A stretch of 64,000 bases of DNA from an uncultured Acidobacteriota bacterium. Lineage in GTDB: Bacteria > Acidobacteriota > UBA6911. This document shows, one piece after another, positions 17,561 through 60,811 of this stretch; within the stretch, counting starts at the first letter, position 1, and the number at the start of each line of letters is the position of its first letter. A program made the position numbers and the translations under genes. Below the pieces are notes generated by a model. That model ran no database searches. It had not been told where the DNA came from and saw only the letters and a list, made by a program, of their open reading frames with translations. The DNA is taken from assembly GCA_963843575.1 (NCBI GenBank), contig CAWJKZ010000014.1:480001-544000 (forward strand). Reading direction: 5' to 3'.

Positions 17561-19724
17561 TCAGGCGGCCGGGAGGGCGGCCTTGACTCTCTCCGGCGTG
17601 AGCGGCATTTCGAACAGGCGCGCACCGGTCGCATCGAAGAGGGCGTTGGCGACCACCGCGCCCACGGGGACTATCGCCGGTTCGCCGCCGCCCTGGGGCG
17701 TAAGATCGTCGTTCTTGACCAGGACCGTCTCGATCACGGGAAGCCAGGAGAATCGCGGGAGTTCGTAGGTATCGAAGTTGCGGTCGAGCACCTCGCCGCC
17801 CTTGAACCGCACCTCCTCGCTGAGCGTGTAGCCCAGCCCCATCGTGATGCAGCCTTCGACCTGCATGGTCGCACCCTCGGGGTTGATGACGATTCCCATC
17901 TCCTGGGCACAGACAATTCTGGCCACCCTCACCCTCCCCGTCTGCTTGTTCACCAGGACCTCGGCAATTTCGGCCACGTATGTTCCGGCGTCAATGCCGC
18001 ACGCGATGCCGACGCCGCGTCCACTGGGCGCGATCCCCTTCTTCCAGCCGAACCGCTCGGCCGCCGCCTGCAGGACGCTGCGCATCCGCTTGTCGGTGGT
18101 GTTGGCGAGCCGGAATTCGAGGGCGTCGACCCCGGCCTTGGCAGCCATGATGTCAACCTGGGATTCCCGGGCGAACACGTTGATGTTCGCACCCGGGGCC
18201 CGCCACGGACCAACCCCGAACGGATGGACTCGGACGGCATCCCCGGACCACTGACCGTAGGTTCTGATCAGGTTGTTCGGCACGTCGTAAAACTGTTCGG
18301 CGCTGCGGGAGCCCGCGAAGTAGACCTGGTAGTCCCACAGGCTCATCCTGCCAGCTCCGTCGACGGCGGAGGCGACCTTCACCACCGCCGCCGGGCGGAA
18401 GTTGTCGTAGAAGAACTCCTCGGCCCGGTTCCAGGCGACCTGAACCGGTTTGCCGGTGATGCGCGACAGGAGCGCGGCCTCGACGCCTTGCCTCGCGTTC
18501 CCGCTCTTTCCCCCAAATCCCCCGCCCACGAACGGCGTGATCACCCGCACCTGTTCCGGCGCGAAGCCGAGCGCGCGCGCAATTTCCTGCTGGTTGGGAA
18601 AAGGGGTCTGGGTGGAAAGCCAAAGGGTCGCTTTCTGCCCTTCGATGTGTGCGAGCGCCGTGTGTGTTTCCATCGGGGCATGTGCGCCATACCCGTCGGT
18701 GTAGGTGTGCTCGAACACGGCCGGGGCGGTCGCGCGCGCCTGCGCAATGTCACCCCTGCGTTCGCTCTCCCGCGCCTCCGGGCGCTTTCGCGACCAGGTA
18801 GTCGAAAATGGTGCGGTTGTCGGCGGCGGGTGCGGGCAACTCGAAATCTGCCTTGACGGCGCCCAGCGCCCGAGCGGCCATTTCAGGGTCCGGGTGGAGC
18901 ACGGCCACCATGCCGTCCTGCTTCACTACCGTGACGCCCGGCAGCTTCTCGGCCGCGGTGGTGTCGACGGTCTTGGGCTGCGCTCCGTGGGCCGGAGGCC
19001 GCAGGACCCTGGCGTACAGCATGCCGGGAAGTCGCACGTCGCCGGCGTACACGGCTTTCCCCGTGACCTTGACGACGGCATCCGTCCTCTTCGCCGGCTT
19101 TCCCATCAACGAAAACTCGGATGGGGACTTGAGCGCCGTCTTCCCCTCGGACTTCCGCGTGATCGTCCGTCCGCCGGCCAGCTGGGCGAAAGAGACGCGC
19201 TTGCTGCGATCCGAGGCGGCGAAGACGATCCCGCGCTCAACCCTGAGGTCGCCCGCCGGGATGCGCAGCCGTTCGGCGGCCAAGCCGATCAGCACGGTCC
19301 GCGCCTCCGCGGCGGCTCCCCGGAGGGCGGGGCCGAAAAACCGGGTGGACATCGAACCGTAGGTCCCCATGTCGAAGGGACAGACCTGCGTGTCCCCCAT
19401 GATCATGTCCACGGCCTCCAGCGCGACCCCGAGTTCGTCGGCGGCCATCTGGGCCAGCGAGGTTACGATGCCCTGGCCCATCTCAATCTTGCCTGAGTAG
19501 ACCGTAACACGCCCGTCCTCACCGATCCGGAGGTAGGCATTCGGATCCGTGGGATAACCTCGGCCGCGGCTCTCCTGGCCTTTCGACGGCGGGATCTCCA
19601 GGCTGAAGAACACGAAAATGCCGGCACCGAACGACTTCAGAAAATCGCGCCGGTCGAGTTCGAGGGCTCTGCCCCAGAGTGTCGCCGCAGGCTCCTGCCC
19701 CCGGTTCCGCTTTTCCCGGCTCAT
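17561..19724 (-). pseudogene. xanthine dehydrogenase family molybdopterin-binding subunit (IorB-like), split by a +1 frameshift near 18780
   Basis: Tat DRRDFLK; EMGQG, GTYGS, KVTGKAVYAGD in the 5' ORF; HAPME, GGGFGGK, WRAPG, GGGEP in the 3' ORF. Removing one base from the GGG run at 18780-18782 fuses the two ORFs; may be a sequencing error. Confidence 0.8.
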
Positions 19725-20185
19725 TTCGACCTCCCGACCTTCGCGATCGCCTGCAGGATGCGCTTATGCGCACCACATCGGCACAGATTGTCGTCCATCG
19801 CCGCGACGATCTCGTCGCGGGTGACGCGGCGCTTGTTCAGCAGCAGCGCATATGCGGTCATGATCATCCCGGGGGTGCAAAAGCCGCACTGCAGCGCGCC
19901 CTCGTCGACGAACGCCTGCTGCAGCGGGTGCAGCTTGCCGTCGCGCGCCAGGCCTTCGATGGTCGTCACGTCCTTCCCGCCAACGTCCCGGACGGGCAGC
20001 CTGCAGGAGCGCACTGCCTCTCTGTCGACGACGACGGTGCACGCACCGCACAGGTTTTCTCCGCAGCCGAACTTGGTACCTGTCAGCTCGAGGTCCGTGC
20101 GCAAAACCCAAAGCAACGCACGGTCCCCCTCGACGTTCAGGCTCGTGGCCTTCCCGTTGAGCTTGAACTTGATGGTTTCTTTCAT
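19721..20185 (-). CDS. (2Fe-2S)-binding subunit (IorA/CoxS-like)
   Basis: GTKFGCGENLCGACTV, SC, TTIEGL, QCGFCTPG, NLCRCG. Confidence 0.92.
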   Translation of the reverse strand: MKETIKFKLNGKATSLNVEGDRALLWVLRTDLELTGTKFGCGENLCGACTVVVDREAVRSCRLPVRDVGGKDVTTIEGLARDGKLHPLQQAFVDEGALQCGFCTPGMIMTAYALLLNKRRVTRDEIVAAMDDNLCRCGAHKRILQAIAKVGRSK

Positions 20186-20268
20186 GGGCGAACTCTCGCG
20201 AAAAAGTTGGAGCGATTCTAGCAGAACGGCACTCACTTCGTCAGCTACCCAAGCAGAGAGTAGAACAA

Positions 20269-33892: not shown

Positions 33893-34891
33893 CTACATTT
33901 TGAACCGGCGAAGTGCGACGCCGCACTCGCGCAAAAGCGCGAGTGCGCGGTCGTTGAGCGGGTACTCCTGGTTGTAGACCACCTCGGCGATGCCGCTGTT
34001 GATGATCATCTTGGTGCAGAGCAGGCATGGGGCGAAGGTCGTGTACAGGGTGGCCCCCTTCAGACTCGTTCCGTGATATGCGGCCTGCGTGATCGCATTC
34101 TCCTCGCCGTGCGAGCAGAGACACTCCTCCAGAGCAGTGCCGCTCTGCGCTAGGCTGTTGCAGCGCGGGCAACCCCCTTCGTTACAGTTCCGGGCGCCGC
34201 GCGGGGTCCCGTTGTAGCCTGTCGACACCACCCTCTTGTCCTTGACGATGATGGCCGCGACCTTCCGCTTGATGCAGTTGCTGCGGGAGGAAACCACGCG
34301 CGCGATACTCATAAAGTACTCGTCCCAGTCGGGGCGCTGAAACCCCGCCATGAACCGCGGGATCAGCATCTCGAGTTTCTGGTGTAGATTCTCGACCGAG
34401 CCGTTGTTGTTCACCACCACGTCTGCCAGGCGATGCGTCGCAACGAGTTGCTGACTGGCGGGGTCGTCACTGTTCAGCTCACGCTCCTCCTCGGCCATGA
34501 ATTGCTGCAACGTCTGGGCGGCACCTTCCCTCGCCCGGGCCCGACTGCGCTCAAACCGCACATGCTCGTCCGCCTCCACGCCGAGCAATATGAAGTCCTT
34601 CCGACGTTTCAAAACCTGAACCTCCGCGGGGTTTCGTATCGAATCGACGACGTAGTTGCGCTCGTGACCGAGTCGAAGCAGCACCCGTTCCGCCAGAACT
34701 CCGGGACCGAATTTCGCCCGCAGCTCGTTCCCGACACAGATCAGTATCTCCCGGGTGATCTCCTGCCCTCTCGACCGGATCTCTTCCCGGATCTCGTCCG
34801 ACAGCGAGTGGTATTCGAACCCCCTGCTTTTGAGATACTCCGACACCTCGGTCTTACCCGACGCGTTCCGGCCCGTCAACCCGATGATCAT
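33893..34891 (-). CDS. P-loop nucleotide kinase-like domain fused to dCMP deaminase
   Basis: IIGLTGRNASGKT P-loop, VVDSIRNPAE; RPDWDEYFM, RSNC, TGYNGTP, HGEENAI, PCLLC. Confidence 0.88.
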   Translation of the reverse strand: MIIGLTGRNASGKTEVSEYLKSRGFEYHSLSDEIREEIRSRGQEITREILICVGNELRAKFGPGVLAERVLLRLGHERNYVVDSIRNPAEVQVLKRRKDFILLGVEADEHVRFERSRARAREGAAQTLQQFMAEEERELNSDDPASQQLVATHRLADVVVNNNGSVENLHQKLEMLIPRFMAGFQRPDWDEYFMSIARVVSSRSNCIKRKVAAIIVKDKRVVSTGYNGTPRGARNCNEGGCPRCNSLAQSGTALEECLCSHGEENAITQAAYHGTSLKGATLYTTFAPCLLCTKMIINSGIAEVVYNQEYPLNDRALALLRECGVALRRFKM

Positions 34892-38283: not shown

Positions 38284-38823
38284 ATGGAGCACACGTTAGT
38301 CCTCAATGCCACGTATGAACCGATCAACATAATCTCCTGGAAGCGCGCCGTCACGCTATTGTGCCAGGGCAAAGTCGAGGTTCTGGCCGAGTACGATCAC
38401 GAGGTGCGCAGCATAAGCTTCAGCATCCGGATGCCGAGCGTGTTGCGCCTTCTCAAGTACGTGAAAATCCGGAGGCGTTTTCAGCACGTCAAGTTTTGCC
38501 GCGCGAATATCTACGCGCGAGATCATCATACGTGCCAGTACTGCGGCAGCAGATGCGCCACCGAGGACCTCACCTTCGACCACGTCACCCCGATTTCAAA
38601 GGGGGGCGGCAAGACCTGGGACAACATCGTCACGTGCTGCTTCGACTGCAACCACCGCAAGGGCGGCCGGACCCCCGAGGAAGCCGGCATGCGGCTAATC
38701 AGGGTGCCCAAGGAACCCGAGTGGGTCCCGAGCATGCTGCACCTGACCATCGGGTTCAGAAGCGCCCCGGAATCCTGGCGCGACTACTTCTACTGGAACG
38801 TGGAGCTCGAAGGGGATTCCTGA
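38284..38823 (+). CDS. HNH endonuclease (McrA-like)
   Basis: LVLNATYEP, PSVLRL, RD..TCQYCG, TFDHV.P.SKGG..TWDN.V.CC..CN.RKG.RTP.EAGM. Confidence 0.92.
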   Translation: MEHTLVLNATYEPINIISWKRAVTLLCQGKVEVLAEYDHEVRSISFSIRMPSVLRLLKYVKIRRRFQHVKFCRANIYARDHHTCQYCGSRCATEDLTFDHVTPISKGGGKTWDNIVTCCFDCNHRKGGRTPEEAGMRLIRVPKEPEWVPSMLHLTIGFRSAPESWRDYFYWNVELEGDS

Positions 38824-49465: not shown

Positions 49466-49849
49466 TCAGCGACGCCGGGCTTCGAGAAGGGTGCGAACGT
49501 TCCCCTCGACGTCCGGCCCGCCGAACTCGCCGTTGAGCACCGTCTCTATCAGCTTCTCGGGCCGCCCGTCGAAGAGCCTTGTGACCAGGTCGTGGATGTA
49601 GTTGCGAACCGCTTGTTCGCGCGTGAGCAATGGCTTGTACAGGTAGGCCCGTCCCGCACGCACGTGCGACAGCGCCCCCTTTTCCTCAAGGATCCCCATC
49701 AGGGTCAGGATGGTTGTGTATGCCGTGGGCTTGCGCCGCGACATGATCTCGCAGACGTCCTTCACGGTTGCCGAGCCGCGTTCCCACACCACTTTCATGA
49801 TGTGCAGTTCCTGGCGTGTCAGTATTATTGAGTCTAGGTCCCTCTTCAT
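49466..49849 (-). CDS. BlaI/MecI/CopY family transcriptional regulator
   Basis: LT..EL.IM.VVW..GSATV.DV, AYTTILT.M..LEEKG, GRAYLY.P. Confidence 0.88.
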   Translation of the reverse strand: MKRDLDSIILTRQELHIMKVVWERGSATVKDVCEIMSRRKPTAYTTILTLMGILEEKGALSHVRAGRAYLYKPLLTREQAVRNYIHDLVTRLFDGRPEKLIETVLNGEFGGPDVEGNVRTLLEARRR

Positions 49850-50129
49850 TACTTCCGCCTCCGACGGGAAAAAGCTTTCTCCGCAGACGTACCGTACCGT
49901 CGTATTGCTTCCGAACACTTAAAAATGGCGTTCATGTTACCAGAAGTACATACGAGGGAATCCGGAAATCGACCGATTATTTAGATTTTACGCCCTTCCA
50001 TGGTTCCACGGCTTAATTTCGTGTTTTTTGCAGGAAGCGAGCACGGTCTTGTTCTTGCTGCTGGCTGACAGCGGACGGTTATGGCTCAGCGCGGCCGATA
50101 CCGCACCCGGGCCGCGCGGTATTCGACGG

Positions 50130-51173
50130 TCACGGTTTTGTCCCTTCCGTGACGCCGGTCAGCAACGCCCGGATCGGCAACGCAGCCCTCCTGCTCGCCG
50201 AATCCGCGGTAAGCAGGGTGATCTGTTCGGCCGACGCCGCGCCCAGCTTCAACTCCGCTGCCCGCCTGATCTGGTCGTGTTCGAAGATGTCCGTGCGTCG
50301 GATCGCGGCGCCGGCGCCGTGGATGCGCAAGATCGAGACGGCCACAGCGTCAATGGCCACCCGGTCGGTGGAAACGGCCAGCATCCCCGGTGCCGCCAGG
50401 TCGCCGCGCTCCGGCCCGCCGCTGATGAACACCTGCGCCGCATCCAGAAAGATCAACGAGGGTGAATACACCAGGTTGGCCTCGGCGATCATCAGCCGCT
50501 GGTCCGCCGACGCGTGCAGTTCCTGCATGTAGTTGTAGGGCTGGGCGTCGTGGCTGTACTTGGCCAGCAGCCCAATCGAATTCTTCAGGCTCGCGCTGAA
50601 GACCCCCCCGAACCGATGCGTCTTGGCACCGCAGATCTGGATGACCGGGGCGTCGTCGTCCAGGAAGCGCGGCAGCTCGACGCCCCTCTTCCAGTGTGAA
50701 TCCGGAACTTCGGCCTTGCGCCACTCGGCCGGGGCCAGTTGATCGAGCGGGAGCAACGCGACATCGAGCCGGCGGGCAAGCTCCGGGATGCCCAGGGCCT
50801 TCCACACCTCCGCCGCCAGCCCCATCCCGCTGCGCTCCACCACCGTGACCCGGCCGCAGTTGCATCGGCGCAGCGCCTCAACCACCCGCGCGAGCGTCTC
50901 GGGGTGCGTCGTGGCCGGGAATGGGTCCGGGCTGTTGAAACTGGCTTTGATGAAGACGTCTCTCCCGCGGAAATCCGGCGCCCCCAGAAGGTCGAGGGCG
51001 GCCGCGACCGCCTTGCCGCGGTCCGCGGCGCCGACGAGGGCCACCGTCGACGGGCGGGGTGTCGCGGTTTCCTGCCTCGACCGCGCCGGCATCCCACCGG
51101 CGATGGCCAGCGCGCCGAATTCACGACGGGTGACCCGGCCGACGCCCCGCGCAAATCCGCTGGAAGAGTGCAT
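50130..51173 (-). CDS. Tat-exported DUF362 domain protein
   Basis: TRREF twin-arginine; VFIKASFNS, TTHP, ERSG, KTHRFGG.FS.SLKNSIG, DRVAIDAV. Start uncertain. Confidence 0.8.
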   Translation of the reverse strand: MHSSSGFARGVGRVTRREFGALAIAGGMPARSRQETATPRPSTVALVGAADRGKAVAAALDLLGAPDFRGRDVFIKASFNSPDPFPATTHPETLARVVEALRRCNCGRVTVVERSGMGLAAEVWKALGIPELARRLDVALLPLDQLAPAEWRKAEVPDSHWKRGVELPRFLDDDAPVIQICGAKTHRFGGVFSASLKNSIGLLAKYSHDAQPYNYMQELHASADQRLMIAEANLVYSPSLIFLDAAQVFISGGPERGDLAAPGMLAVSTDRVAIDAVAVSILRIHGAGAAIRRTDIFEHDQIRRAAELKLGAASAEQITLLTADSASRRAALPIRALLTGVTEGTKP

Positions 51174-51205
51174 GCTTCCCATGTTACTCAAAGGACGGAG
51201 GCGAT

Positions 51206-51433
51206 ATGCAAGAGAAAGTGATCATCTTCGGCAAGGACACCTGACCGTACACTCAGGCGGCCCGTGAGGACTTCGCCGCCAGGAATGTCCCGGTCGAATA
51301 CCACAACGTGCTCGGCAGCCGGCGTGAAATGGACATGATGCTGAAATACTCCGGCGGGGCGCGAGAGGTCCCACTCATCGTCGACGGGGGACGGGTAACC
51401 GCAGGCTACGACGGCGGCTCCTGACACGTATGA
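51206..51433 (+). CDS. glutaredoxin-like selenoprotein (UXX-star type), Sec at codons 13 and 73
   Basis: GGAGG SD; MQEKVIIFGKDT-U-PYTQAARE...REVPLIVDGG...GYDGGS-U-HV-stop; UGA at 51242-51244 and 51422-51424, each followed by a SECIS-like hairpin. Confidence 0.85.
51245..51281 (+). promoter_or_regulatory. putative SECIS element 1
   Basis: GGCGGC-CC-GTGA-GG-ACTTC-GCCGCC; G-initiated apical loop 19 nt after the UGA. Confidence 0.55.
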
Positions 51434-51456
51434 CCCTCCCGCAGTCTGCGGGATCA
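51425..51456 (+). promoter_or_regulatory. putative SECIS element 2
   Basis: TCCCGCA-GTC-TGCGGGA; G-initiated loop 19 nt after the UGA; resembles the GCAGGUCUGC apex of the E. coli fdhF SECIS. Confidence 0.65.
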
Positions 51457-51751
51457 GACGGGGATGCGGCCTGGACTTTGCCCTCATCCCGGCGCGAGAA
51501 CGGGGGAAAATCGAAAACCCGCCACCGAGGGACATAGATTCAAACAAGCTTTGCGCGGGTCTGCGATGACACGAGCTCGGCACGCTCGGACCCGGTTTGG
51601 CTTCCACCGTGGGGCTGCCCCGCGGCGGGCAACCTCGGCGCCACCGATTTCGAGACTACCGGGTGGATAGCGCGACGTCTGCACCCCGGCGCACTTGACC
51701 CCCGGGCCCTTTCCCCCTACAGTTGCGATGGTGTTTGCGTGTGGAGCGGGT

Positions 51752-52996
51752 GTGAACAGGGTAATTCTGCTGCATTATCACGAGATAAACCTCAAGGGCG
51801 GCAACCGCGGCTGGTTCGAGATGAAGCTGCAGCGGCACGTCGAGCGTCTGCTTGCCGACTTGCCCCAGGGGGGCGTGCGCAAGTACGGCGGCCGCATGAT
51901 GGTGCCGCTGATGGCACACTCCCCCGTCGAGGAGCTGCGCGCCAGGCTGAGCCGGGTGTTCGGCGTGGCGAACATCGCGGTGGCGTGGGAGGTGCCGGCC
52001 GTCCTGAGCGAGATCAAAGACGCGCTGAAGCAGCTGATCGAGGGGAAGGATTTTGCCACGTTCAAAATAGACGCCCGGCGCGCCACCAAGGACTTCCCGC
52101 TGAATTCGCAAAAGCTCAACGAGGAGCTCGGAGGGTTCGTCCAGGAGATGACCGGCGCCGCCGTGCGGCTGCAGGATCCCGATCTCACCTGCTGGGTGGA
52201 GATCGTACAGGAGCACGCCTTTATCTATTTCGAGAAGGTGCAGGCCGGTGGCGGATTGCCCTCGGGAACGGGGGGGAAGGTGCTTTGCCTCCTGTCGGGA
52301 GGGATCGACTCTCCCGTGGCCGCGTACCGGCTGATGCGCCGGGGGTGCCAGGTCGTCTTCGTCCACTTTCACAGCTTCCCGCACACCACGGTCGAGTCGC
52401 AGGACAAGGTGCGCCTCATCGCGGCAGTCCTGGCGCGTTACCAACTGGACGCGCGGCTGCACCTCGTGCCTTTCGCCGAGGTGCAGCGCGAGATCGTGGC
52501 CTACGCGCCGCCGGCGCTGCGGGTGCTGCTGTACCGCCGTTTCATGCTGAGGATAGCGGAGGCGATCGCCTCGGCCGAAAAAGCTGCCGCCCTGGTGACC
52601 GGCGACAACCTGGGGCAGGTCGCCAGCCAGACCCTCGAGAACCTGCGCGCCGTCTCCTCGGTGGCGTCGCTCCCGATCTTCCGGCCGCTGATCGGCGACG
52701 ACAAGGAAGACATCATGAACTCGGCCCGCGCCATCGGCACCTACGACATCAGCATCCTGCCGGACCAGGACTGCTGCACGATGTTCGTGCCGCGCCACCC
52801 GGAGACGATGGGCACGATCGAGCAGATGCAGCAGGCCGAGGCCTCGCTGGATCTTCCGCGTCTGATCGAGTCCGCCCTTCGCGACACCACCCGCGAGACC
52901 CTGTCCCCGGATTACCGGCGAGGGCCGGCGCCGGGCCGCGGCGCGCCGCGTGGCGCCGAGCCGGCCGGGCTTTCTCAATTTCCGGCACGACCTTGA
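51752..52996 (+). CDS. thiI: tRNA 4-thiouridine synthase ThiI (no rhodanese domain)
   Basis: HYHEINLKGGNR, THUMP domain, GGLP.GT.GK, LLSGGIDSPVA, GDNLGQVASQT, RPLIG.DK, QDCC. Confidence 0.93.
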   Translation: MNRVILLHYHEINLKGGNRGWFEMKLQRHVERLLADLPQGGVRKYGGRMMVPLMAHSPVEELRARLSRVFGVANIAVAWEVPAVLSEIKDALKQLIEGKDFATFKIDARRATKDFPLNSQKLNEELGGFVQEMTGAAVRLQDPDLTCWVEIVQEHAFIYFEKVQAGGGLPSGTGGKVLCLLSGGIDSPVAAYRLMRRGCQVVFVHFHSFPHTTVESQDKVRLIAAVLARYQLDARLHLVPFAEVQREIVAYAPPALRVLLYRRFMLRIAEAIASAEKAAALVTGDNLGQVASQTLENLRAVSSVASLPIFRPLIGDDKEDIMNSARAIGTYDISILPDQDCCTMFVPRHPETMGTIEQMQQAEASLDLPRLIESALRDTTRETLSPDYRRGPAPGRGAPRGAEPAGLSQFPARP

Positions 52997-53099
52997 TGCT
53001 TGCCGGTGTTCGGGCGGTCTTCCACCTCGAGGGGGAGGTCGTCCTTCAAGCACAGCCCGGTTGAGGCGTTTCCCCCCCGGGCCCGTGCGCGGGGCGCGC

Positions 53100-54429
53100 A
53101 TGCACATTCTGGGACTGCTGCTCCATCTGATCTCGGCGCCGCTCGGCCCGGCCCACCCCGACGGGCCGCCGACCACCCTCTGGTCCGGCACCCTCGCCGG
53201 CAACGAAGCAGTAGCCGAGTTCCGCGTCCACTTGAGCGCGCGCGTGCCGGGCGCCTCGTGGAAGGAGGCCCGGCGCGCGTGCGGCGTACTCACCGTGTCG
53301 GTCGACGGACGCTACGACCAGCATGTCTTCCTGGCCGGAAACGGCCAGTGGACCGACCTACGAGTTCGTCGTGGGGCCGGTCGCCCCCGGCACGCACACG
53401 ATCCGCCTGGACTGGATGCGCGACTGGACACCCGACCTGACGCAGGAGCCGGAACTGCGGGACATCCGGCTGGAGCCGCTGCGCCAGGCCGACCCGGCGC
53501 TGGAACCCGTGCTGCGCGCACCCAGCCTCTGGCTTCGGGCCGACACCATCGGCCGCTTCAGCGACGTGCCGCTGGCGCTGTACTGGGAACGCCTGAAGAC
53601 CCCGCGCGGCGAGCGGCTCGTCTACACCGTCATCATGACCAACGAGGACGGGGGGACCAACACCGAGAGGCTGATGGCCCGGTGGGGTCGCACCACCGAC
53701 ATCGAGTGGTGCTACGCCCACGAAGGCTCGGGCGCCGACCGCGAAGACACCTACCAGGGACGCGACCACGAGACCATCCCGTTCCACGGCCGCTACGACG
53801 GGTGGCACCCGAACCTCTACGACGTGACGGTGAACAACGTCTTTTCCGACACCCCCGCCGGGGCCGCCCAGACGGTGCGGGTCCGTCCTTTCCCGGTGTT
53901 TGCAGACCTCGCCCGCAGCACCAGGGAATCGGTCATGGAACGATTCCCGTGGCTCTATGGGGTGATGGCCGACGAGATGGAGCGCGAGGGGAAGCTCGAG
54001 TCCCCGGCGGATCCCGCGACGGCGGCCGTCTCCGACCTGCGCAACTACGCCTACGTGGAAGTCTGTGCCGAACAGCGCGGGACGGAGCTGCGGTTCGAGG
54101 TACAGCTCGACGGCGGCGGGCGCTGGTTCAGCTCCGACCACCTCGACCCGAAGGCGCGCATCGAGCGGAGCGGCTGCTTCCGCTCGTCCGTCGAGCTGCC
54201 CCCGGGCACCCTGCCCCGGCAGATCAGCGCCTTACGGATAGAATGTCTTCCCGAACCAGCGCGCGGCGGGAAGCCCCCGGTCTCCCGCCCCGGCGCGCGG
54301 CTGCTCGGCGTCGGGCGCCTGTTCATGCTCGACAGCGCCTACCAGCCGGGAGCGAGCGTGCTCCAACGGAGCCGTCCGGCTTCCCTCAAGCCGGGCCAGT
54401 CTCTCACGGTTCGGCCGCGACAGAGCTGA
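53100..54429 (+). pseudogene. secreted hypothetical protein with a +1 frameshift near 53355
   Basis: Signal-like N-terminus from ATG 53100 reads sensibly to ..GNGQWTD, then continues in the 53323 frame (YEFVVGP...TNEDGGT...ARWGRTTDIEW). Confidence 0.65.
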
Positions 54430-54500
54430 ACATCCGCTGGCCGGGCGACGCCGCCCGACCGGCGCACCGTTTCGCTCCCCGCCGTCCTGCAAATTCACCC

Positions 54501-54548
54501 TTGACAGCCGACGCTGCCGATCGTATAAATGTTTCGCAATTTAGAAAC
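54501..54548 (+). promoter_or_regulatory. sigma70 promoter and inverted-repeat operator of the ArsR operon
   Basis: TTGACA-17 bp-TATAAA, followed by GTTTC-N8-GAAAC over the predicted start site. Confidence 0.7.
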
Positions 54549-54569
54549 TTTTATCAACAGGAAGGATTC

Positions 54570-54956
54570 ATGGCCGCAAACCCGATCACCGACAAGGCGT
54601 CGCTGCGCAGAGTCTTCGAACTGCAGTGCCAGATCTGCAAGGCGATGGCGCACCCGCTCCGCCTCGAGATCGTCGAACGGCTCCATCGGCGGGAGATGGC
54701 CGCGGCGGAGTTGATCGACACCCTGGACACGTCCAAGGCGAACCTCTCGAAGCACATGAACCTGCTGATCAACGCCGGCATCGTCCAGCAGAGGCGCAAC
54801 GGCAGGCAGGTCTCTTACAGCCTGGCCTATCCGGAAATCCACGAAGCGTGCACGATCATGCGCTCGATCCTGTTCCGCCGGCTGAAGACCGGCGGCAAAC
54901 TGGCGCTGGCCCTGAAGCCGGCGAGCCGTATAGCGATCGTCCCAACCGTCTCCTAG
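54570..54956 (+). CDS. ArsR/SmtB family transcriptional regulator
   Basis: KAMAHPLRLEI, NLSKHM..L..AGIV..RR.G..V.YSL; GAAGGA SD before ATG 54570. Confidence 0.9.
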   Translation: MAANPITDKASLRRVFELQCQICKAMAHPLRLEIVERLHRREMAAAELIDTLDTSKANLSKHMNLLINAGIVQQRRNGRQVSYSLAYPEIHEACTIMRSILFRRLKTGGKLALALKPASRIAIVPTVS

Positions 54957-54966
54957 GCGTGACACC

Positions 54967-56331
54967 ATGACATCGAAGCTAGCCACAGTTCTCAGCATGA
55001 CCGCAGTGATCTTCGCGGCCTCCGCCGTTCCGGCCGTCTTCGGGCAGCAGCTCACGCTGCAGGCCGCCGCCGCCCGGGCCCTGGAACGCAATCCAGAGCT
55101 GGCCGTCGACGCGCCCGGGCGCGAGGCCGCCAGGTTCGATCTGGCCGCCAGCCGGGCCGGCTTCCTTCCCAGGGTCGACTTCGAGCAGTCTTACACGGGC
55201 GGCAACAACCCCGTGTACGTCTTCGGGACGCTCCTGACGCAACGCCGGTTCGGCGCCGCCAATTTCGCGCTCCCTTCCCTGAATAGCCCCGACCCGGTCG
55301 ACAACCTGCAGAGCCGTTTCACGGTCCAGCAGACCGTCTGGGATTTCGGCCGGACGCGGCAGAAGGTGGACGCAGCCAGCCTGGGGTTGAGCCTGACTGA
55401 CCGCGATCATGAAGAGCACGTCCGGCAGGTCCTGCTCTCGGTCCTCGCCGCCTATTTCGGCGTGTCGCAGGCACGCGAGGTGTGGGACGCGGCACGCGCC
55501 GCCCTGGATTCCGCGCAGGCGATCAGCGCGCAGGCGAAGCAGCGGGTTTCCGCCGGCCTCGCCGTGGAGGCCGACGTGCTGCGGAGCGAAGCGCACCTGG
55601 CGTCCGTGCGCCAGCAGGAAATTCAGTCCCGGGGGGAGTTGGACGTTGCGCGGGCCACCCTGAACCGTCTCATGGGGGAGCCCCTGGCTGCCGCAACCGG
55701 CGACACCGCGGCCCTTGCGCCCGCGCTCTTCCCGGTACCCACCGAGGAAGAGCTGATCGCCGCGCAGCGGCAGAGGAGGCCCGACTACCAGCGCCTGCTA
55801 CTCGAGCTTCGGCAGGCCGAACTCGAGGCCGGCGCCAGGAAGGCGGAATTCTACCCCGTCGTCGGCGCGTTCGCTGGTTGGGAGGCCGACAACCCGTCGC
55901 TGCGGAGCGCCGGGGGGACGAACTGGTCGGCAGGGGTCAGCCTGCGCTGGAACCTGTTCGCCGGGGGGAGCGACGCAGCGAGGCTGCAGGCGGCACGCCA
56001 GCGCCTGGAACAGAAACGGCGCCAGATCGCGGCAGTGGAATCCGCCATGGCGCTCGAGATCCACCGGGCCGCGGTCCAATTGAGGTCCGCCGAGCAGCAG
56101 GTCGAGGTGACCCGCGCGGCGGAGGCGCAGGCCCAGGAAAGCGTGCTCATCCTCAAGAACCGTTACGACGCCGGCCTGGCCACCCTGACGGACCTACTTT
56201 CCGCCGAGGGCGCGCGCGCCGGCGCGCGCGCCGCGTTCGCCGAATCGATCTACCGCCACCGGCTCACGTTCGCCCAGCTCGAGTATGCGGCGGGCATCCT
56301 CAGTCCAACATCCAAAGCCATGCAACCCTGA
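54967..56331 (+). CDS. TolC family outer membrane efflux protein
   Basis: Signal peptide; LTL..A...ALE.NP, LP.VD, VWDFG, LRWNLF.GG, RY.AG. Confidence 0.9.
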   Translation: MTSKLATVLSMTAVIFAASAVPAVFGQQLTLQAAAARALERNPELAVDAPGREAARFDLAASRAGFLPRVDFEQSYTGGNNPVYVFGTLLTQRRFGAANFALPSLNSPDPVDNLQSRFTVQQTVWDFGRTRQKVDAASLGLSLTDRDHEEHVRQVLLSVLAAYFGVSQAREVWDAARAALDSAQAISAQAKQRVSAGLAVEADVLRSEAHLASVRQQEIQSRGELDVARATLNRLMGEPLAAATGDTAALAPALFPVPTEEELIAAQRQRRPDYQRLLLELRQAELEAGARKAEFYPVVGAFAGWEADNPSLRSAGGTNWSAGVSLRWNLFAGGSDAARLQAARQRLEQKRRQIAAVESAMALEIHRAAVQLRSAEQQVEVTRAAEAQAQESVLILKNRYDAGLATLTDLLSAEGARAGARAAFAESIYRHRLTFAQLEYAAGILSPTSKAMQP

Positions 56332-56341
56332 AGGTAGACTC

Positions 56342-57532
56342 ATGCGCATACCATTTTCGACAGGCATAATCGCCCTCACCGGGGCCTTGCTCGCCTCCGG
56401 TTGCCACGAGGCGACGAAACCGACCGGCCCGTCCAGGCCGGTCGCGGTGAGCGTCCTGCCCGCGCGGTACGAGACCGTGTCCTCGTCGGTCGAGGCTCCC
56501 GGCTCGGTACAGGCTCGGAACCGCATCGTGCTGGCCTCCCAGGTAAACGGCTACGTCCGCGCCCTCCAGGTGCGCGCGGGTGACCTTGTCCGCGAGGGGC
56601 AGGTGCTGGCGTCGCTCGACTCGCGCGACGCCCAAAGCCAGAAGGAGTTCAGCGAAGCCTCGATCCAGGAAGCCCGAGCCGCCCTCGACGAGGCGCGCAA
56701 GTCGGCCCAGGCCGCCCAAAGCGCGCTGAAGGCGGCACACGCCGGAAACGAACTCGCGTCCAGCACCTACGCGCCGGTTCCAGAAGCTCTTCGAGGCCCG
56801 CTCGGTGTCTCCGCAGGAGCTGGACGAGGTGCGCTCCCGCCGCGACTCCGCCGCCGCCGACCTCGCCGCCCGCGACACGATGGCCGCCGCGGCCGAAGAC
56901 CGGGTGCGACAGATCGAGGCCCGGATCTCCCAGGCCGGCGCCCAGTCGCGTCGCGCGGACGTGGCGCTCAGCTGGACGGTCGTCAAGGCGCCGGCGGCAG
57001 GACGGGTCGTCGAACGGCCCGTGGACCCGGGCGCCGTCATCTTCCCGGGGACTCCGCTGTTTGTCCTCGAGTCCGCCACGAAACCGCAGGCGGTCGGCGA
57101 TCTGCCCACGGTCGAGTCCCGCCACCTCACCCTGGGAATGAACGTCACCGTGCAGGCCGGCCAGGAGAAGTTTTGCCGGGAAAGGTGGTGGAGGTGATAC
57201 CGGTGACGGCGCCGGGAGCCCACACGATCCGTTTCAAGGTGGATTTGCCCGCGGGCTTTGCCGGCATCTCCGGGAATTTCGTCCGGATCCTCATCCCTTC
57301 GGGCACCCGCAACGCCCTGCTGGTGCCGCGCTCCTCGGTGCGGGAAGTAGGACAACTGACCGGCTTGTTCGTGGTCGACGGGGCCTCGAAGGCGCGCTTC
57401 CGCCTGATCAGGACCGCCGCATACGACAACGAACGGGTGGAGGTGCTCTCCGGCGTCGAACCGGGCGACAGGGTTGTCGACAGCCCCGGAATCGAGGTGG
57501 TTGACGGAGCCTCGCTGGAGGTCAGGTCATGA
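56342..57532 (+). CDS. RND efflux periplasmic adaptor subunit, with two compensating frameshifts (about 56774 and 57172)
   Basis: Lipobox ASGC; V.G.V..L.V..GD.V..GQ.L..LD. The true hairpin/lipoyl middle (SPQELDE...VKAP.AG.V) lies in the 56805-57197 frame; the C-terminus (EVLSG..PGDRVV) is back in the first frame. Confidence 0.8.
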   Translation: MRIPFSTGIIALTGALLASGCHEATKPTGPSRPVAVSVLPARYETVSSSVEAPGSVQARNRIVLASQVNGYVRALQVRAGDLVREGQVLASLDSRDAQSQKEFSEASIQEARAALDEARKSAQAAQSALKAAHAGNELASSTYAPVPEALRGPLGVSAGAGRGALPPRLRRRRPRRPRHDGRRGRRPGATDRGPDLPGRRPVASRGRGAQLDGRQGAGGRTGRRTARGPGRRHLPGDSAVCPRVRHETAGGRRSAHGRVPPPHPGNERHRAGRPGEVLPGKVVEVIPVTAPGAHTIRFKVDLPAGFAGISGNFVRILIPSGTRNALLVPRSSVREVGQLTGLFVVDGASKARFRLIRTAAYDNERVEVLSGVEPGDRVVDSPGIEVVDGASLEVRS

Positions 57533-60500
57533 GCAAGCCCGGAATGGCCGGCAAGGTGGCCCACGCCTTCCTCAATTCGAAGTTGACCCCGCTGATCCTG
57601 ATCGCCTCTATCGCACTGGGCGCGGCCGCCGTCGTCCTGCTCCCCAGGGAGGAGGAACCGCAGATCGTCGTCCCGATGATCGACATCTTCGTCTCGTACC
57701 CGGGGGCTTCCCCGAAGGAAGTCGAGACCCGCATCGTCCGTCCCATGGAACAGCTCCTGTGGGAGATCCCGGGAGTCGAGTACATCTACAGTACGGCGAG
57801 CCCCGGTTCGAGCATGACGATCGTCCGGTTCTTCGTCGGGGAGGATGAGGAGAAGAGCATCGTCCGGCTCAACCAGAAGATGTTCGCGAACTTCGACCTG
57901 ATCCCGCCCGGGGCGTCGCAGCCGCTGATCAAGCCGCGCTCGATCGACGATGTCCCGTTCCTGGCCTTGACCCTGTGGAGCAAGGAGCTGGACGGCTACC
58001 AGATCAGACGCGCGGCCGCCGAGTTGCGCAACGAGGTCCAGAAAATCCCCGACATCGCCGCCACCGAGATCATCGGCGGCCAGCGCAGGCAGCTCCGGGT
58101 GGAACTGGACGCAACACAACTCGCGGCCTACGGGATCGGCGCCGGCCAGTTGCGTGGGGCACTGCAGGCGGAAAACCGCGAGACCGACGCCGGCGAGATC
58201 ACCCGGGGCAACGAGGTTTTCTCGGTTCGCCTGAACGGTTTTCTCCGGAGCGCCGAGGACCTCCAGAACCTCGTCGTCGGGATGCGAGACGGCGCGCCCG
58301 TCTACCTGCGCAACGTGGCGCGCGTGCTGGATGGACCGGAGGAACCGAAAGACTACGTCTTCTTCGCCCCGGGGCCGGCTGCCAGCTCCAAGGGCATAGA
58401 CATGCAGCCGGGGTCCGGCGCGGAGGGGACTGCCCCTCGTCTCCCTGGATCCCGCCACGGGAGGGTCGGGCACGCCTGGTGCCGGGCTGTTCCCGGGCGT
58501 GACGCTTTCGGTGGCCAAGCGCAAGGGCAAGAACGCCGTTGACCTCGCCCGCCAGGTGGAGCAGCGCGCGGAGGAGTTCCGGGCCCGCTATTTCCCGGCA
58601 TCCCTCCAGATGACCGTGACCCGGAACTACGGCGAAACCGCGGCGGAGAAATCGAACGAGCTGCTGCTCCACATGATGATCGCCGTCCTTTCGGTCACGC
58701 TGCTGATCTGGCTCATCCTCGGATTCCGCGAGGCGGGGGTCGTGGCGGTAGCCATCCCGGTGACGCTTGCCCTGACCCTCATCGTCTTCCTGCTGTACGG
58801 GTATACGTTGAACCGGATCACGCTCTTCGCCCTGATCTTTTCCATCGGTATCCTGGTCGACGACGCGATCGTCGTGGTCGAGAACATCGTGCGGCACAAG
58901 AGGCTCCCCGAAAACCGCGGCCGCAGTTTCGTCGACGTGGCCGTCGAGGCGGTCGACGAGGTGGGCAATCCGACGATTCTCGCCACCCTGACCGTCATCG
59001 CGGCGATCCTGCCGATGGCCGCCGTGCGCGGCCTGATGGGTCCGTACATGCGCCCGATCCCGATCGGCGCCTCGGCCGCCATGATCTTCTCGCTGCTGGT
59101 CGCCTTCGTCGTGACACCCTGGGCCGCCGCGCGTTTACTCCGGCCCGCGGGGGGCGGCCACGCGCACGAGGATGGGGACGGGGACGACTGGTCGACCCGG
59201 CTCTACCGCCGCTTCATGGGGAGGCTCCTTTCCAGCGACAGGTACCAATGGGCGTTCCTCGGGTTGGTCTCCGTGCTACTGCTGGCCTCGATGAGCCTGG
59301 TCTATTTCCGGCTGGTTGTCGTGAAGATGCTCCCCTTCGACAACAAGAGCGAGTTCCAGGTCATCGTGGACATGCCCGAAGGGACGAGCCTGGAGAAGAC
59401 CGCCGCGGTCACGCGGGAACTCGCCGTGCAGCTCCAGCAGGTCCCGGAGGTTACCGATTACGAGACATACGTGGGTACGGCCTCCCCGTTCAACTTCAAC
59501 GGGCTGGTCCGTCATTACTATGTCCGGCGCGGGTCGAACGTCGCCGACATCCAGGTCAACCTCACCCCCAAGGGAGAGCGCTCGGCGCAGAGCCACGCGA
59601 TCGCGCTGCGAACCCGCACACTGCTGCAGCCGATCGCTCAGAAGCACGGCGCGAGGATCAAGGTGGCCGAGGTGCCGCCCGGCCCACCCGTACTGCAAAC
59701 GCTCGTCGCCGAGATCTATGGTCCGGACTATTCCAGGCAGGTGGAACTCGCCCGCAGCGTGCGGGACACCCTCGACAAGACGCCCGGGATCGTGGACGTC
59801 GACTGGTATGTCGAAGACCCGCAGCGCGAGATGCGCTTCCGTGTGGACCGCCTGAAGGCGTCGCTCGCCGGCGTCTCTCTCGGCGACATCCAGCAGACCG
59901 TGCAGGTCGGGGTTTCCGGCAGCATCGCGGGCCTCGCACATCTCTCGAGCGAGTCCGAGGACGTGCCCATAACCGTGCGGCTCCCGCTGGAGGCCCGCAC
60001 CGAGGTGTCAGATCTGAACAAGCTGCGGATAGCTTCGGCGGCAGGCCGCCTGGTCCCGCTGTCCGAGCTCGGTGTTTGGGAAGAATCGCTGCGCGAACCC
60101 AGCATTTACCACAAGAACCTCATGCCGGTGGTCTACGTGACCGCAGACGTCGCCGGCCACGAGGAGAGCCCGGTGTATCCCATCCTCAAACTCGACGGCG
60201 AGCTGCGCTCGATGAGGCTGCCCGAGGGGTACACCATGGAGACCTACACGGCCCGTCAGCCGGAGAACAGCGACCGCCTGGCGATGAAGTGGGATGGGGA
60301 GTGGCACATCACCTACGAGGTCTTCCGCGACCTGGGACTGGCCTTTGCCGCGGTCCTGGTCCTGATCTACATCCTGGTGGTAGCATGGTTCCAGAGTTTC
60401 AAGACGCCGCTGGTGATCATGGCCGCGATCCCCTTCTCCCTGGTCGGCATCCTGCCGGCGCATTGGGGATTCGGCGCCTTCTTTACGGCAACTTCGATGA

Positions 60501-60811
60501 TCGGTTTCATCGCCGGCGCCGGCATCGTGGTGCGCAACTCCATCATCCTGGTGGATTTCATCGAGTTGAGGCTCCAGGCGGGCGAATCGCTGCGCCAGGC
60601 TGTCGTCGAGGCGGGGGCCGTTCGGTTCCGGCCCATGATGCTCACGGCCGCCGCGGTTGTCGTCGGCTCGGCCGTGATCCTGTTCGACCCGATTTTCCAG
60701 GGCCTCGCCATCTCGCTGATGGCCGGGGAGGTCGCGTCGCTGCTGTTGAGCCGCATGACGGTCCCGGTGTTGTTTTTCATGCTGCGCCGCTGGGAGCTGA
60801 GCCGGCGGTAG
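57529..60811 (+). pseudogene. RND efflux permease (AcrB/CusA family), split by a +1 frameshift between 58400 and 58540
   Basis: PREEEPQI.VP, YPGASP.EVE; then [47 protein letters not shown]; likely an extra G in GGGG at 58425-58428. Confidence 0.85.

Follow-up and report, generated by a model that had tools for sequence, protein, structure and literature searches.

Selenocysteine (Sec)-containing relatives of glutaredoxin (Grx) are already on record. In the accessible parts of two sources, Zhang & Gladyshev 2008 list a Grx-like family with a UxxC motif, and a 2026 review (PMC13188914) places Sec at the first active-site position of the C. oremlandii Grx. The closest described system is UXX-star selenoprotein family 1, which the same portion of the review lists as 'Distant Grx-like protein 1' with a UxxT motif and two Sec, and for which it indicates no characterised member; Haft & Tolstoy 2025 is cited there as the primary source for the UXX-star families. 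The BSepDB paper contains no mention of the UXX-star family terms searched for in it. The present analysis concerns a 75-codon gene with two in-frame UGA codons, very probably a two-Sec member of this family, in a 64,000-nucleotide stretch of DNA from an uncultured Acidobacteriota bacterium (assembly GCA_963843575.1, contig CAWJKZ010000014.1, positions 480,001 to 544,000 of the forward strand), which is referred to below as the window.

An earlier note on this DNA had pointed out that UXX-star families were already defined computationally. This was right and understated, since two Sec are already given for family 1 in the accessible part of the review; the gene is therefore not a discovery and its novelty is low. 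It is a divergent new member of an already curated family. As far as family 1 is described in that part of the review, the window protein shares with it the U/C-P-Y-T motif, a Sec three residues before the stop, a length of ~70 residues, the glutaredoxin-like fold and the two Sec. No defining difference was found between them; the window copy is divergent, with a best identity of 63%, and has the tail S-U-H-V compared with the usual T-U-G-V.

A hidden gene with two in-frame UGA codons

The gene is composed of the following elements.

51197..51201, + strand: Shine-Dalgarno-like GGAGG, 4 nt ahead of the ATG, from direct reading
51206..51433, + strand: coding sequence, final TGA stop included, of a probable 75-residue UXX-star family 1 glutaredoxin-like selenoprotein, from translation with TGA read as U and from profile matches
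51242..51244, + strand: UGA codon 13, predicted Sec in the U-P-Y-T motif, at the position of the nucleophilic active-site Cys
51422..51424, + strand: UGA codon 73, predicted Sec at the third-last residue (the U of U-X-X-stop)
51431..51433, + strand: true stop TGA, two codons (CAC GTA) past the predicted Sec73

With TGA read as U, the protein is MQEKVIIFGKDT-U-PYTQAAREDFAARNVPVEYHNVLGSRREMDMMLKYSGGAREVPLIVDGGRVTAGYDGGS-U-HV, or in short form MQEKVIIFGKDT-U-PYT...GGS-U-HV. The start at the ATG at 51206 agrees with the MPEKVIIFGKDT-type N-termini of relatives, and the GC content of the three codon positions (0.64/0.43/0.77) matches the coding pattern of the other genes in the window. The U-X-X-stop layout is present, with exactly two sense codons between the in-frame UGA and the stop. 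The earlier note had read a strong ribosome-binding site and a frame running through two UGA codons to HV-stop, and GGAGG, the three TGAs and the translation were found exactly as claimed. Under the standard code (table 11), no + strand open reading frame (ORF) of at least 40 aa is listed at the locus, so that the gene is hidden from ordinary ORF lists, as had also been noticed. The hidden glutaredoxin-like gene is real and intact, and Sec at residues 13 and 73 is predicted from sequence comparison.

Family assignment and predicted fold

The NCBIfam model NF041114 ("UXX-star selenoprotein family 1") aligns to the window protein over its full length (profile 1-70/70) with 107.8 bits against a curated cutoff of 72, and the broader Uxx_star model NF041212 gives 83.1 bits against a cutoff of 66. 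All of the sampled relatives (12/12), with Cys13 or with Sec13, likewise score above the NF041114 cutoff. The Pfam Glutaredoxin domain covers residues 5-62 (34.9 bits), and U13-P-Y-T16 forms the U/C-x-x-T active-site motif on a glutaredoxin-like fold. The scores remain far below the cutoffs of the Grx equivalogs (TIGR02181, 31.3 vs 90; TIGR02180, 23 vs 87.25) and of the NrdH-redoxin subfamily (TIGR02194, 14 vs 85.75), and the CPYC dithiol motif of classical glutaredoxin (Grx1/Grx3 type) is absent, the motif here being U-P-Y-T. That the gene belongs to UXX-star selenoprotein family 1 as a two-Sec protein is held with high, though not complete, confidence.

An AlphaFold2 model from a 55-row alignment (predicted local distance difference test score, pLDDT, 94.5; predicted template modelling score, pTM, 0.83) predicts a glutaredoxin fold with confidence and places the tail confidently. 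The modelled elements are a strand (residues 5-9), a helix (14-25), a strand (30-34), a helix (39-49) and two further strands (57-60 and 63-66). The model ends past strand 4 with a 9-residue tail, and no C-terminal helix is present. The top Foldseek matches in the PDB (TM 0.74-0.79), all small redoxins, are B. cereus BC3987, C. oremlandii cGrx1, A. fulgidus Grx and E. coli Grx3. A glutaredoxin-like selenoprotein, as proposed in the earlier note, thus agrees with both the full-length NF041114 match and the modelled fold.

When the protein is aligned by profile with E. coli Grx3 (1fov), residue 13 matches the first Cys (Cys11) of CPYC, Thr16 takes the place of the second, and V55-P56 line up with the TVP cis-Pro motif, which bears out the prior placement of UGA13 at the redox Cys of a CPYx motif and the recognition of a VP cis-Pro. 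Classical dithiol glutaredoxins (E. coli Grx3, 1fov and 3grx) and the natural selenoprotein Grx1 of C. oremlandii (7c10, 7c12) share its fold (TM 0.74-0.80), active-site position and cis-Pro, whereas the window protein has Thr16 for the second Cys, no C-terminal helix and an extra predicted C-terminal Sec. The protein is accordingly described here as a truncated, monothiol-type (in this copy monoselenol-type) glutaredoxin-like redoxin.

Codons 13 and 73 in the relatives

A protein search returned 19 homologs with 55-67% identity to the window protein, and a scan of one genome per species gave 55 related loci from Acidobacteriota (many of them Vicinamibacterales), Deltaproteobacteria/Thermodesulfobacteriota, Anaeromyxobacter/Myxococcales and one Betaproteobacteria metagenome-assembled genome. 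Two search patterns were used, of which one, GKDTCPYT, is unable to match TGA at codon 13.

Codon 73 is TGA in 51 of the 55 loci, TGC in two (L041 and L054) and TCA in one (L042), and one locus (L009) has a divergent end. Past codon 73, two sense codons, mostly G-V or G-I, precede a stop in all 53 loci that were parsed, and this terminal stop is TGA in 29, TAA in 12 and TAG in 12. Codon 13 is TGC in 32 loci, TGT in 22 and TGA in one (L036). Locus L036 therefore carries TGA at both positions, and L041 and L054 carry Cys at both, which is the kind of homolog that the earlier note had suggested looking for. Since Cys and TGA are each seen at 13 and at 73, both positions form Cys/Sec pairs. One database homolog, P0007 (58% identical), has W at both sites (DTWPYT ... 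GGTWGV) and is read as a probable double-TGA gene translated under another code.

Two loci differ in their ends. L042 (6001-6228) has Ser (TCA) at 73 and yet keeps G-V-stop, and L009 (6001-6300) has lost the conserved tail (…GWCVECGSSD-stop), possibly by frameshift.

A conserved hairpin follows UGA73

A hairpin of the selenocysteine insertion sequence (SECIS) type is conserved at a fixed distance past UGA73. In the window it has the following position.

51427..51460, + strand: SECIS 2 candidate, mostly in the 3' untranslated region (UTR) and overlapping the stop; upper stem-loop 51437-51453 (7 bp) with a GUC loop at 51444-51446

The lower pairs of this hairpin take in the stop UGA. The bacterial SECIS (bSECIS) model, as given in the Figure 2 legend of the review (PMC13188914), specifies a loop of 3-9 nt, a stem of 4-16 bp, a G in the first two loop bases, a spacing of 16-37 nt and a minimum free energy (MFE) of -7.5 kcal/mol or below. 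All of these constraints are satisfied after UGA73 by the GUC loop, the 7-bp stem, the 19-nt spacing and the energy of -14.5 kcal/mol. The latter was obtained for the 39-nt fold, with z -2.36 against shuffles, and the other fold length gave z -0.71. An equal distance from each UGA to its loop had been claimed before, and at both UGAs the first base of the G-initiated loop indeed lies 19 nt after the A (GUGA, 51264-51267; GUC, 51444-51446).

Hairpins were counted in each of the 52 UGA73 genes (51 loci and the window) as stems of at least 5 bp with the loop starting 14-24 nt after the UGA and a G in the first two loop bases. Such a hairpin is present in 50/52 genes, with L025 and L055 as the misses, compared with 108/1087 random TGA triplets in the same loci and 19/225 true stops of neighbouring ORFs of at least 200 aa. 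The 52 stems comprise 44 different sequences, and C-G and G-C are both common at each stem position; the pairing is thus kept while the sequence drifts.

The database homologs could suggest a simpler view, in which translation of a 72-residue glutaredoxin simply ends at UGA73 and the hairpin beyond it is a terminator or another 3' element: 16 of the 19 end at ...GFGGT, exactly at the position of the second TGA, and the hairpin lies past the coding sequence, where terminators occur. This view is very improbable. Exactly two sense codons (G-V/I) and a stop follow in all 51 TGA73 loci, the two Cys73 relatives have the same C-G/T-V-stop ending, and the NF041114 profile covers the tail. The hairpin itself keeps a fixed distance from the UGA and has a G in the first two loop bases in 51/52 genes, and it is absent altogether from the Cys73 gene L054. 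A T-rich tail follows it in only 1/52 genes, and the window shows neither a T-run behind its hairpin nor any terminator-like site, which indicates that the element after UGA73 is not a terminator.

The SECIS of fdhF, taken from the E. coli K-12 sequence, was used for comparison. The first 7 nt, UGACACG, are identical in fdhF and in SECIS 2 of the window, and both hairpins start at or near the UGA. The apex is GCA-GGUC-UGC in fdhF and GCA-GUC-UGC in the window, the loop starts 18 nt and 19 nt after the UGA, respectively, and the exact GCAGGUCUGC occurs in five relatives. In contrast, the fdhF SECIS lies inside the coding sequence and SECIS 2 is almost wholly 3' UTR. No bulged U was identified in SECIS 2, and its resemblance to fdhF is one of sequence and fold alone. 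An fdhF-like second hairpin lying largely in the 3' UTR had been anticipated in the earlier note, and both its apex and its position agree with that description. The proven fdhF SECIS scores only z -1.33 in the same shuffle test, so this test of single hairpins has little power in either direction.

The hairpin after UGA13

The candidate element after the first UGA lies within the coding sequence.

51242..51296, + strand: candidate SECIS 1, a long irregular hairpin starting at the UGA

Its core is a 6-bp G/C stem (51256-51261 / 51275-51280) that starts 11 nt after the UGA; above the core are a 5-nt 3' bulge, a 2-bp apical stem and the GUGA loop. The 59-nt fold has -24.5 kcal/mol and z -2.14, and shorter lengths give z -0.70 and -0.61. 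The GUGA loop, the 19-nt spacing and the energy fit the bSECIS model. In a bulge-tolerant test on 60-nt MFE folds, the hairpin is accepted in 2/2 Sec13 genes (window and L036), 10/54 Cys13 genes and 46/52 UGA73 sites. The UGA13 hairpin is compatible with a SECIS, with modest support from these two DNA sequences. The earlier claim of two SECIS hairpins therefore holds for the second, which occurs in 50/52 genes within the model constraints, and only modestly for the first, for which the 2/2 against 10/54 stands beside a failed strict search.

Evidence for and against Sec at both positions

A number of observations weigh against Sec decoding in this gene, and in particular at codon 13. None of selA, selB, selD and tRNA-Sec was found within the 64-kb window, where ARAGORN reports no tRNA. 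A crude screen, which sees only TGAs with at least 30 open coding-like codons on each side, found no other TGA-interrupted coding region or selenoprotein candidate in the window, and a search of the Rfam SECIS families at gathering and at E <= 10 gave none, only two noise hits. As the window contains no Sec machinery, Rfam SECIS or second candidate, this gene is the sole indication here of Sec use by the organism. When the 52 post-UGA73 segments were aligned with MAFFT, RNAalifold detected no pairing among them, a null result that was attributed to misregistered loops of 3-5 nt and that led to the per-sequence hairpin counting. The apical stem of SECIS 1 has 2 bp compared with the 4-16 bp of the bSECIS model, and the element needs its 5-nt bulge; the strict contiguous-stem search misses SECIS 1 both in the window and in L036. 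Its 50-nt energy of -15.5 kcal/mol lies inside the spread of the Cys13 genes (mean -13.6, sd 4.8). UGA13 is found in only 1/55 loci. Finally, the window protein has a branch of 0.66 compared with a median of 0.12 and carries His74 where at least 90% of sequences have Gly, which could mean relaxed constraint.

Several of these points would also be explained by an error at codon 13, in which a Cys13 (TGC) ancestor underwent a one-base change, or the assembly is wrong, leaving a pseudogene or a Cys13/Sec73 protein. Cys13 is present in 54/55 loci and TGC to TGA is a single change, the fold after UGA13 is not clearly better than those of the Cys13 genes, and the terminal branch is long. Such an error is nevertheless unlikely. 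Past codon 13, the sequence has lost no invariant residue and hardly any conserved one, and its GC pattern by codon position is intact: the window protein retains all 9 invariant alignment columns and 16/17 of the columns conserved at 90% or above, His74 being the exception. TGA, or a W read-through, is found at codon 13 in L036 (57%) and P0007 (58%) as well, so the TGA state persists across deep divergence. Both Sec13 genes available at the DNA level pass the bulge-tolerant SECIS test, and the accessible part of the review (PMC13188914) lists two Sec and UxxT for the family. The rarity of UGA13 is itself partly an artefact, since the GKDTCPYT pattern has no TGA option and biases the count. 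For decoding of UGA13, these comparative arguments (the conserved columns and the sharing with L036 and P0007) are stronger than the hairpin. The family tree, with 30 of 53 inner branches open, does not separate one origin of Sec13 from several.

TGA could alternatively be an ordinary sense codon (e.g. Trp or Gly), so that neither site is Sec, and P0007 was indeed deposited with W at both sites. Stop-codon usage effectively refutes this: TGA ends 21/30 genes of the window that match family profiles and is not a general sense codon here. The crude screen of the window found no coding region interrupted by TGA, and W or G at the catalytic Cys position is without precedent among the 54 Cys13 relatives. 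Sec at both positions is the favoured prediction.

Genomic context

With a GC content of 64%, the window is a chromosome segment that encodes an Acidobacteria-type VWA protein. The genes on either side of the selenoprotein gene are as follows.

50133-51191, - strand: divergent DUF362 protein
51695-52993, + strand: ThiI (tRNA 4-thiouridine sulfurtransferase), ~260 nt downstream of the selenoprotein gene

A weak promoter-like site precedes ThiI, which is also found within 6 kb of the homolog in 12/55 loci (e.g. L055:7725-8858), and this proximity may be lineage synteny and not a functional link.

In the relatives from Acidobacteriota, a long ThyX is present in 26/55 loci and a Nudix hydrolase in 14, and an adjacent 4HBT-type thioesterase forms a cluster that spans 28 loci, an upper bound because of shadow ORFs. 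In Deltaproteobacteria/Thermodesulfobacteriota, ndk is present in 11 loci, and UXX-star, ndk, protoglobin-PsiE and rlmN follow one another co-directionally in 10-11. Examples of neighbour positions in relatives are L014:6327-7946, L041:2812-3228 and L019:2596-3516. Two separate phylum-level groups thus have nucleotide-metabolism neighbours, and within a lineage the neighbours are conserved. The window copy is without these conserved neighbours of its relatives: none of ThyX, the thioesterase, ndk, Nudix, protoglobin-PsiE and rlmN is present in the window. No paper linking a selenoprotein, ThyX and glutaredoxin was found in the set of papers searched.

The surroundings of the window gene could point elsewhere, to a protein in which both Sec bind a metal or metalloid and which serves as a small chaperone for, or sensor of, Hg, As, Cu and the like. 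Within 2-9 kb lie a CopY-like repressor (49469-49918) and a TolC/RND efflux set (54967-60808), as well as an ArsR-type domain. Each of these three recurs in 0/55 loci, the conserved neighbours of the relatives are nucleotide-metabolism genes, and the protein has the fold, active-site position and cis-Pro expected of a thiol-disulfide oxidoreductase; a role in metal binding is therefore a minor possibility.

Other observations in the window

The ArsR/SmtB domain mentioned above is the sole family match (residues 561-633) of a 668-aa ORF at 52950-54953 (+), which overlaps another ORF at 53323-54426. The 668-aa ORF is probably a high-GC artefact, the real regulator gene being short. The RND efflux permease is divided between two ORFs with a 41-nt overlap, 57529-58539 (+) and 58499-60808 (+), which cover the profile at ~11-287 and ~280-1008; the split suggests a frameshift or an error in the sequence.

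Two adjacent ORFs at 17564-18718 (-) and 18753-19724 (-) each match portions of a molybdopterin-binding subunit (xanthine dehydrogenase/aldehyde oxidase family), and the order of their profile segments looks split or permuted. They are followed at 19724-20236 by the matching [2Fe-2S] small subunit. A 332-aa protein at 33896-34891 (-) comprises a kinase-like N-terminus and a dCMP/ComEB-type deaminase, and its match to the anti-phage dCTP deaminase is sub-threshold (148 bits vs a cutoff of 400). The 179-aa ORF at 38284-38820 (+) has a weak match in the HNH region to the RNA-guided nucleases IscB/Cas9d (48.9 bits vs a cutoff of 175), which is a domain-level resemblance only.

Discussion

In the proposed decoding mechanism, SelB and Sec-tRNA would bind the hairpin 11-12 nt downstream of each UGA and recode it. 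Owing to its fixed spacing, the 3' UTR hairpin would recode UGA73 and leave the UGA nine bases later free to end translation.

The chemistry would depend on residues 13 and 73. The resolving Cys of CxxC is replaced by Thr, and the C-terminal Sec is therefore probably the resolving or relay partner of residue 13. The common Cys13 forms would cycle via a selenenylsulfide with the C-terminal Sec in this role, and the double-Sec form would cycle via a diselenide, a scheme modelled on the C-terminal redox tail of thioredoxin reductase. That residues 13 and 73 form such a redox couple is a serious but still tentative proposal, drawn by analogy and given slightly less than even chances.

Animal thioredoxin reductase has a C-terminal Gly-Cys-Sec-Gly redox tail, and its SECIS is necessarily located past the stop codon. 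In both proteins a Sec would lie a few residues from the C-terminus, on a flexible tail in exchange with a second redox centre. The proposed partner in the window protein is its own glutaredoxin active site, in contrast to the adjacent Cys and the flavin-linked dithiol of thioredoxin reductase. The window gene belongs to a bacterial system, so its SECIS must sit immediately after the UGA, unlike that of the animal enzyme.

A broader proposal would treat the double-Sec form as a self-contained diselenide module, in which the Sec73 tail swings onto Sec13, and the family as one that serves nucleotide or tRNA-thiolation chemistry and not general thiol homeostasis. This combination is speculative and rather unlikely to hold as a whole.

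The locus is of value for annotation, as relatives are routinely deposited ending at GFGGT and named 'glutaredoxin 3'. It also illustrates the position dependence of bacterial Sec decoding, with two UGAs nine bases apart that are predicted to have opposite fates and a SECIS 2 that lies almost entirely past the stop codon with an apex almost identical to that of E. coli fdhF. With 75 residues and two predicted Sec, the protein would be a tractable model for the diselenide/selenenylsulfide couple.

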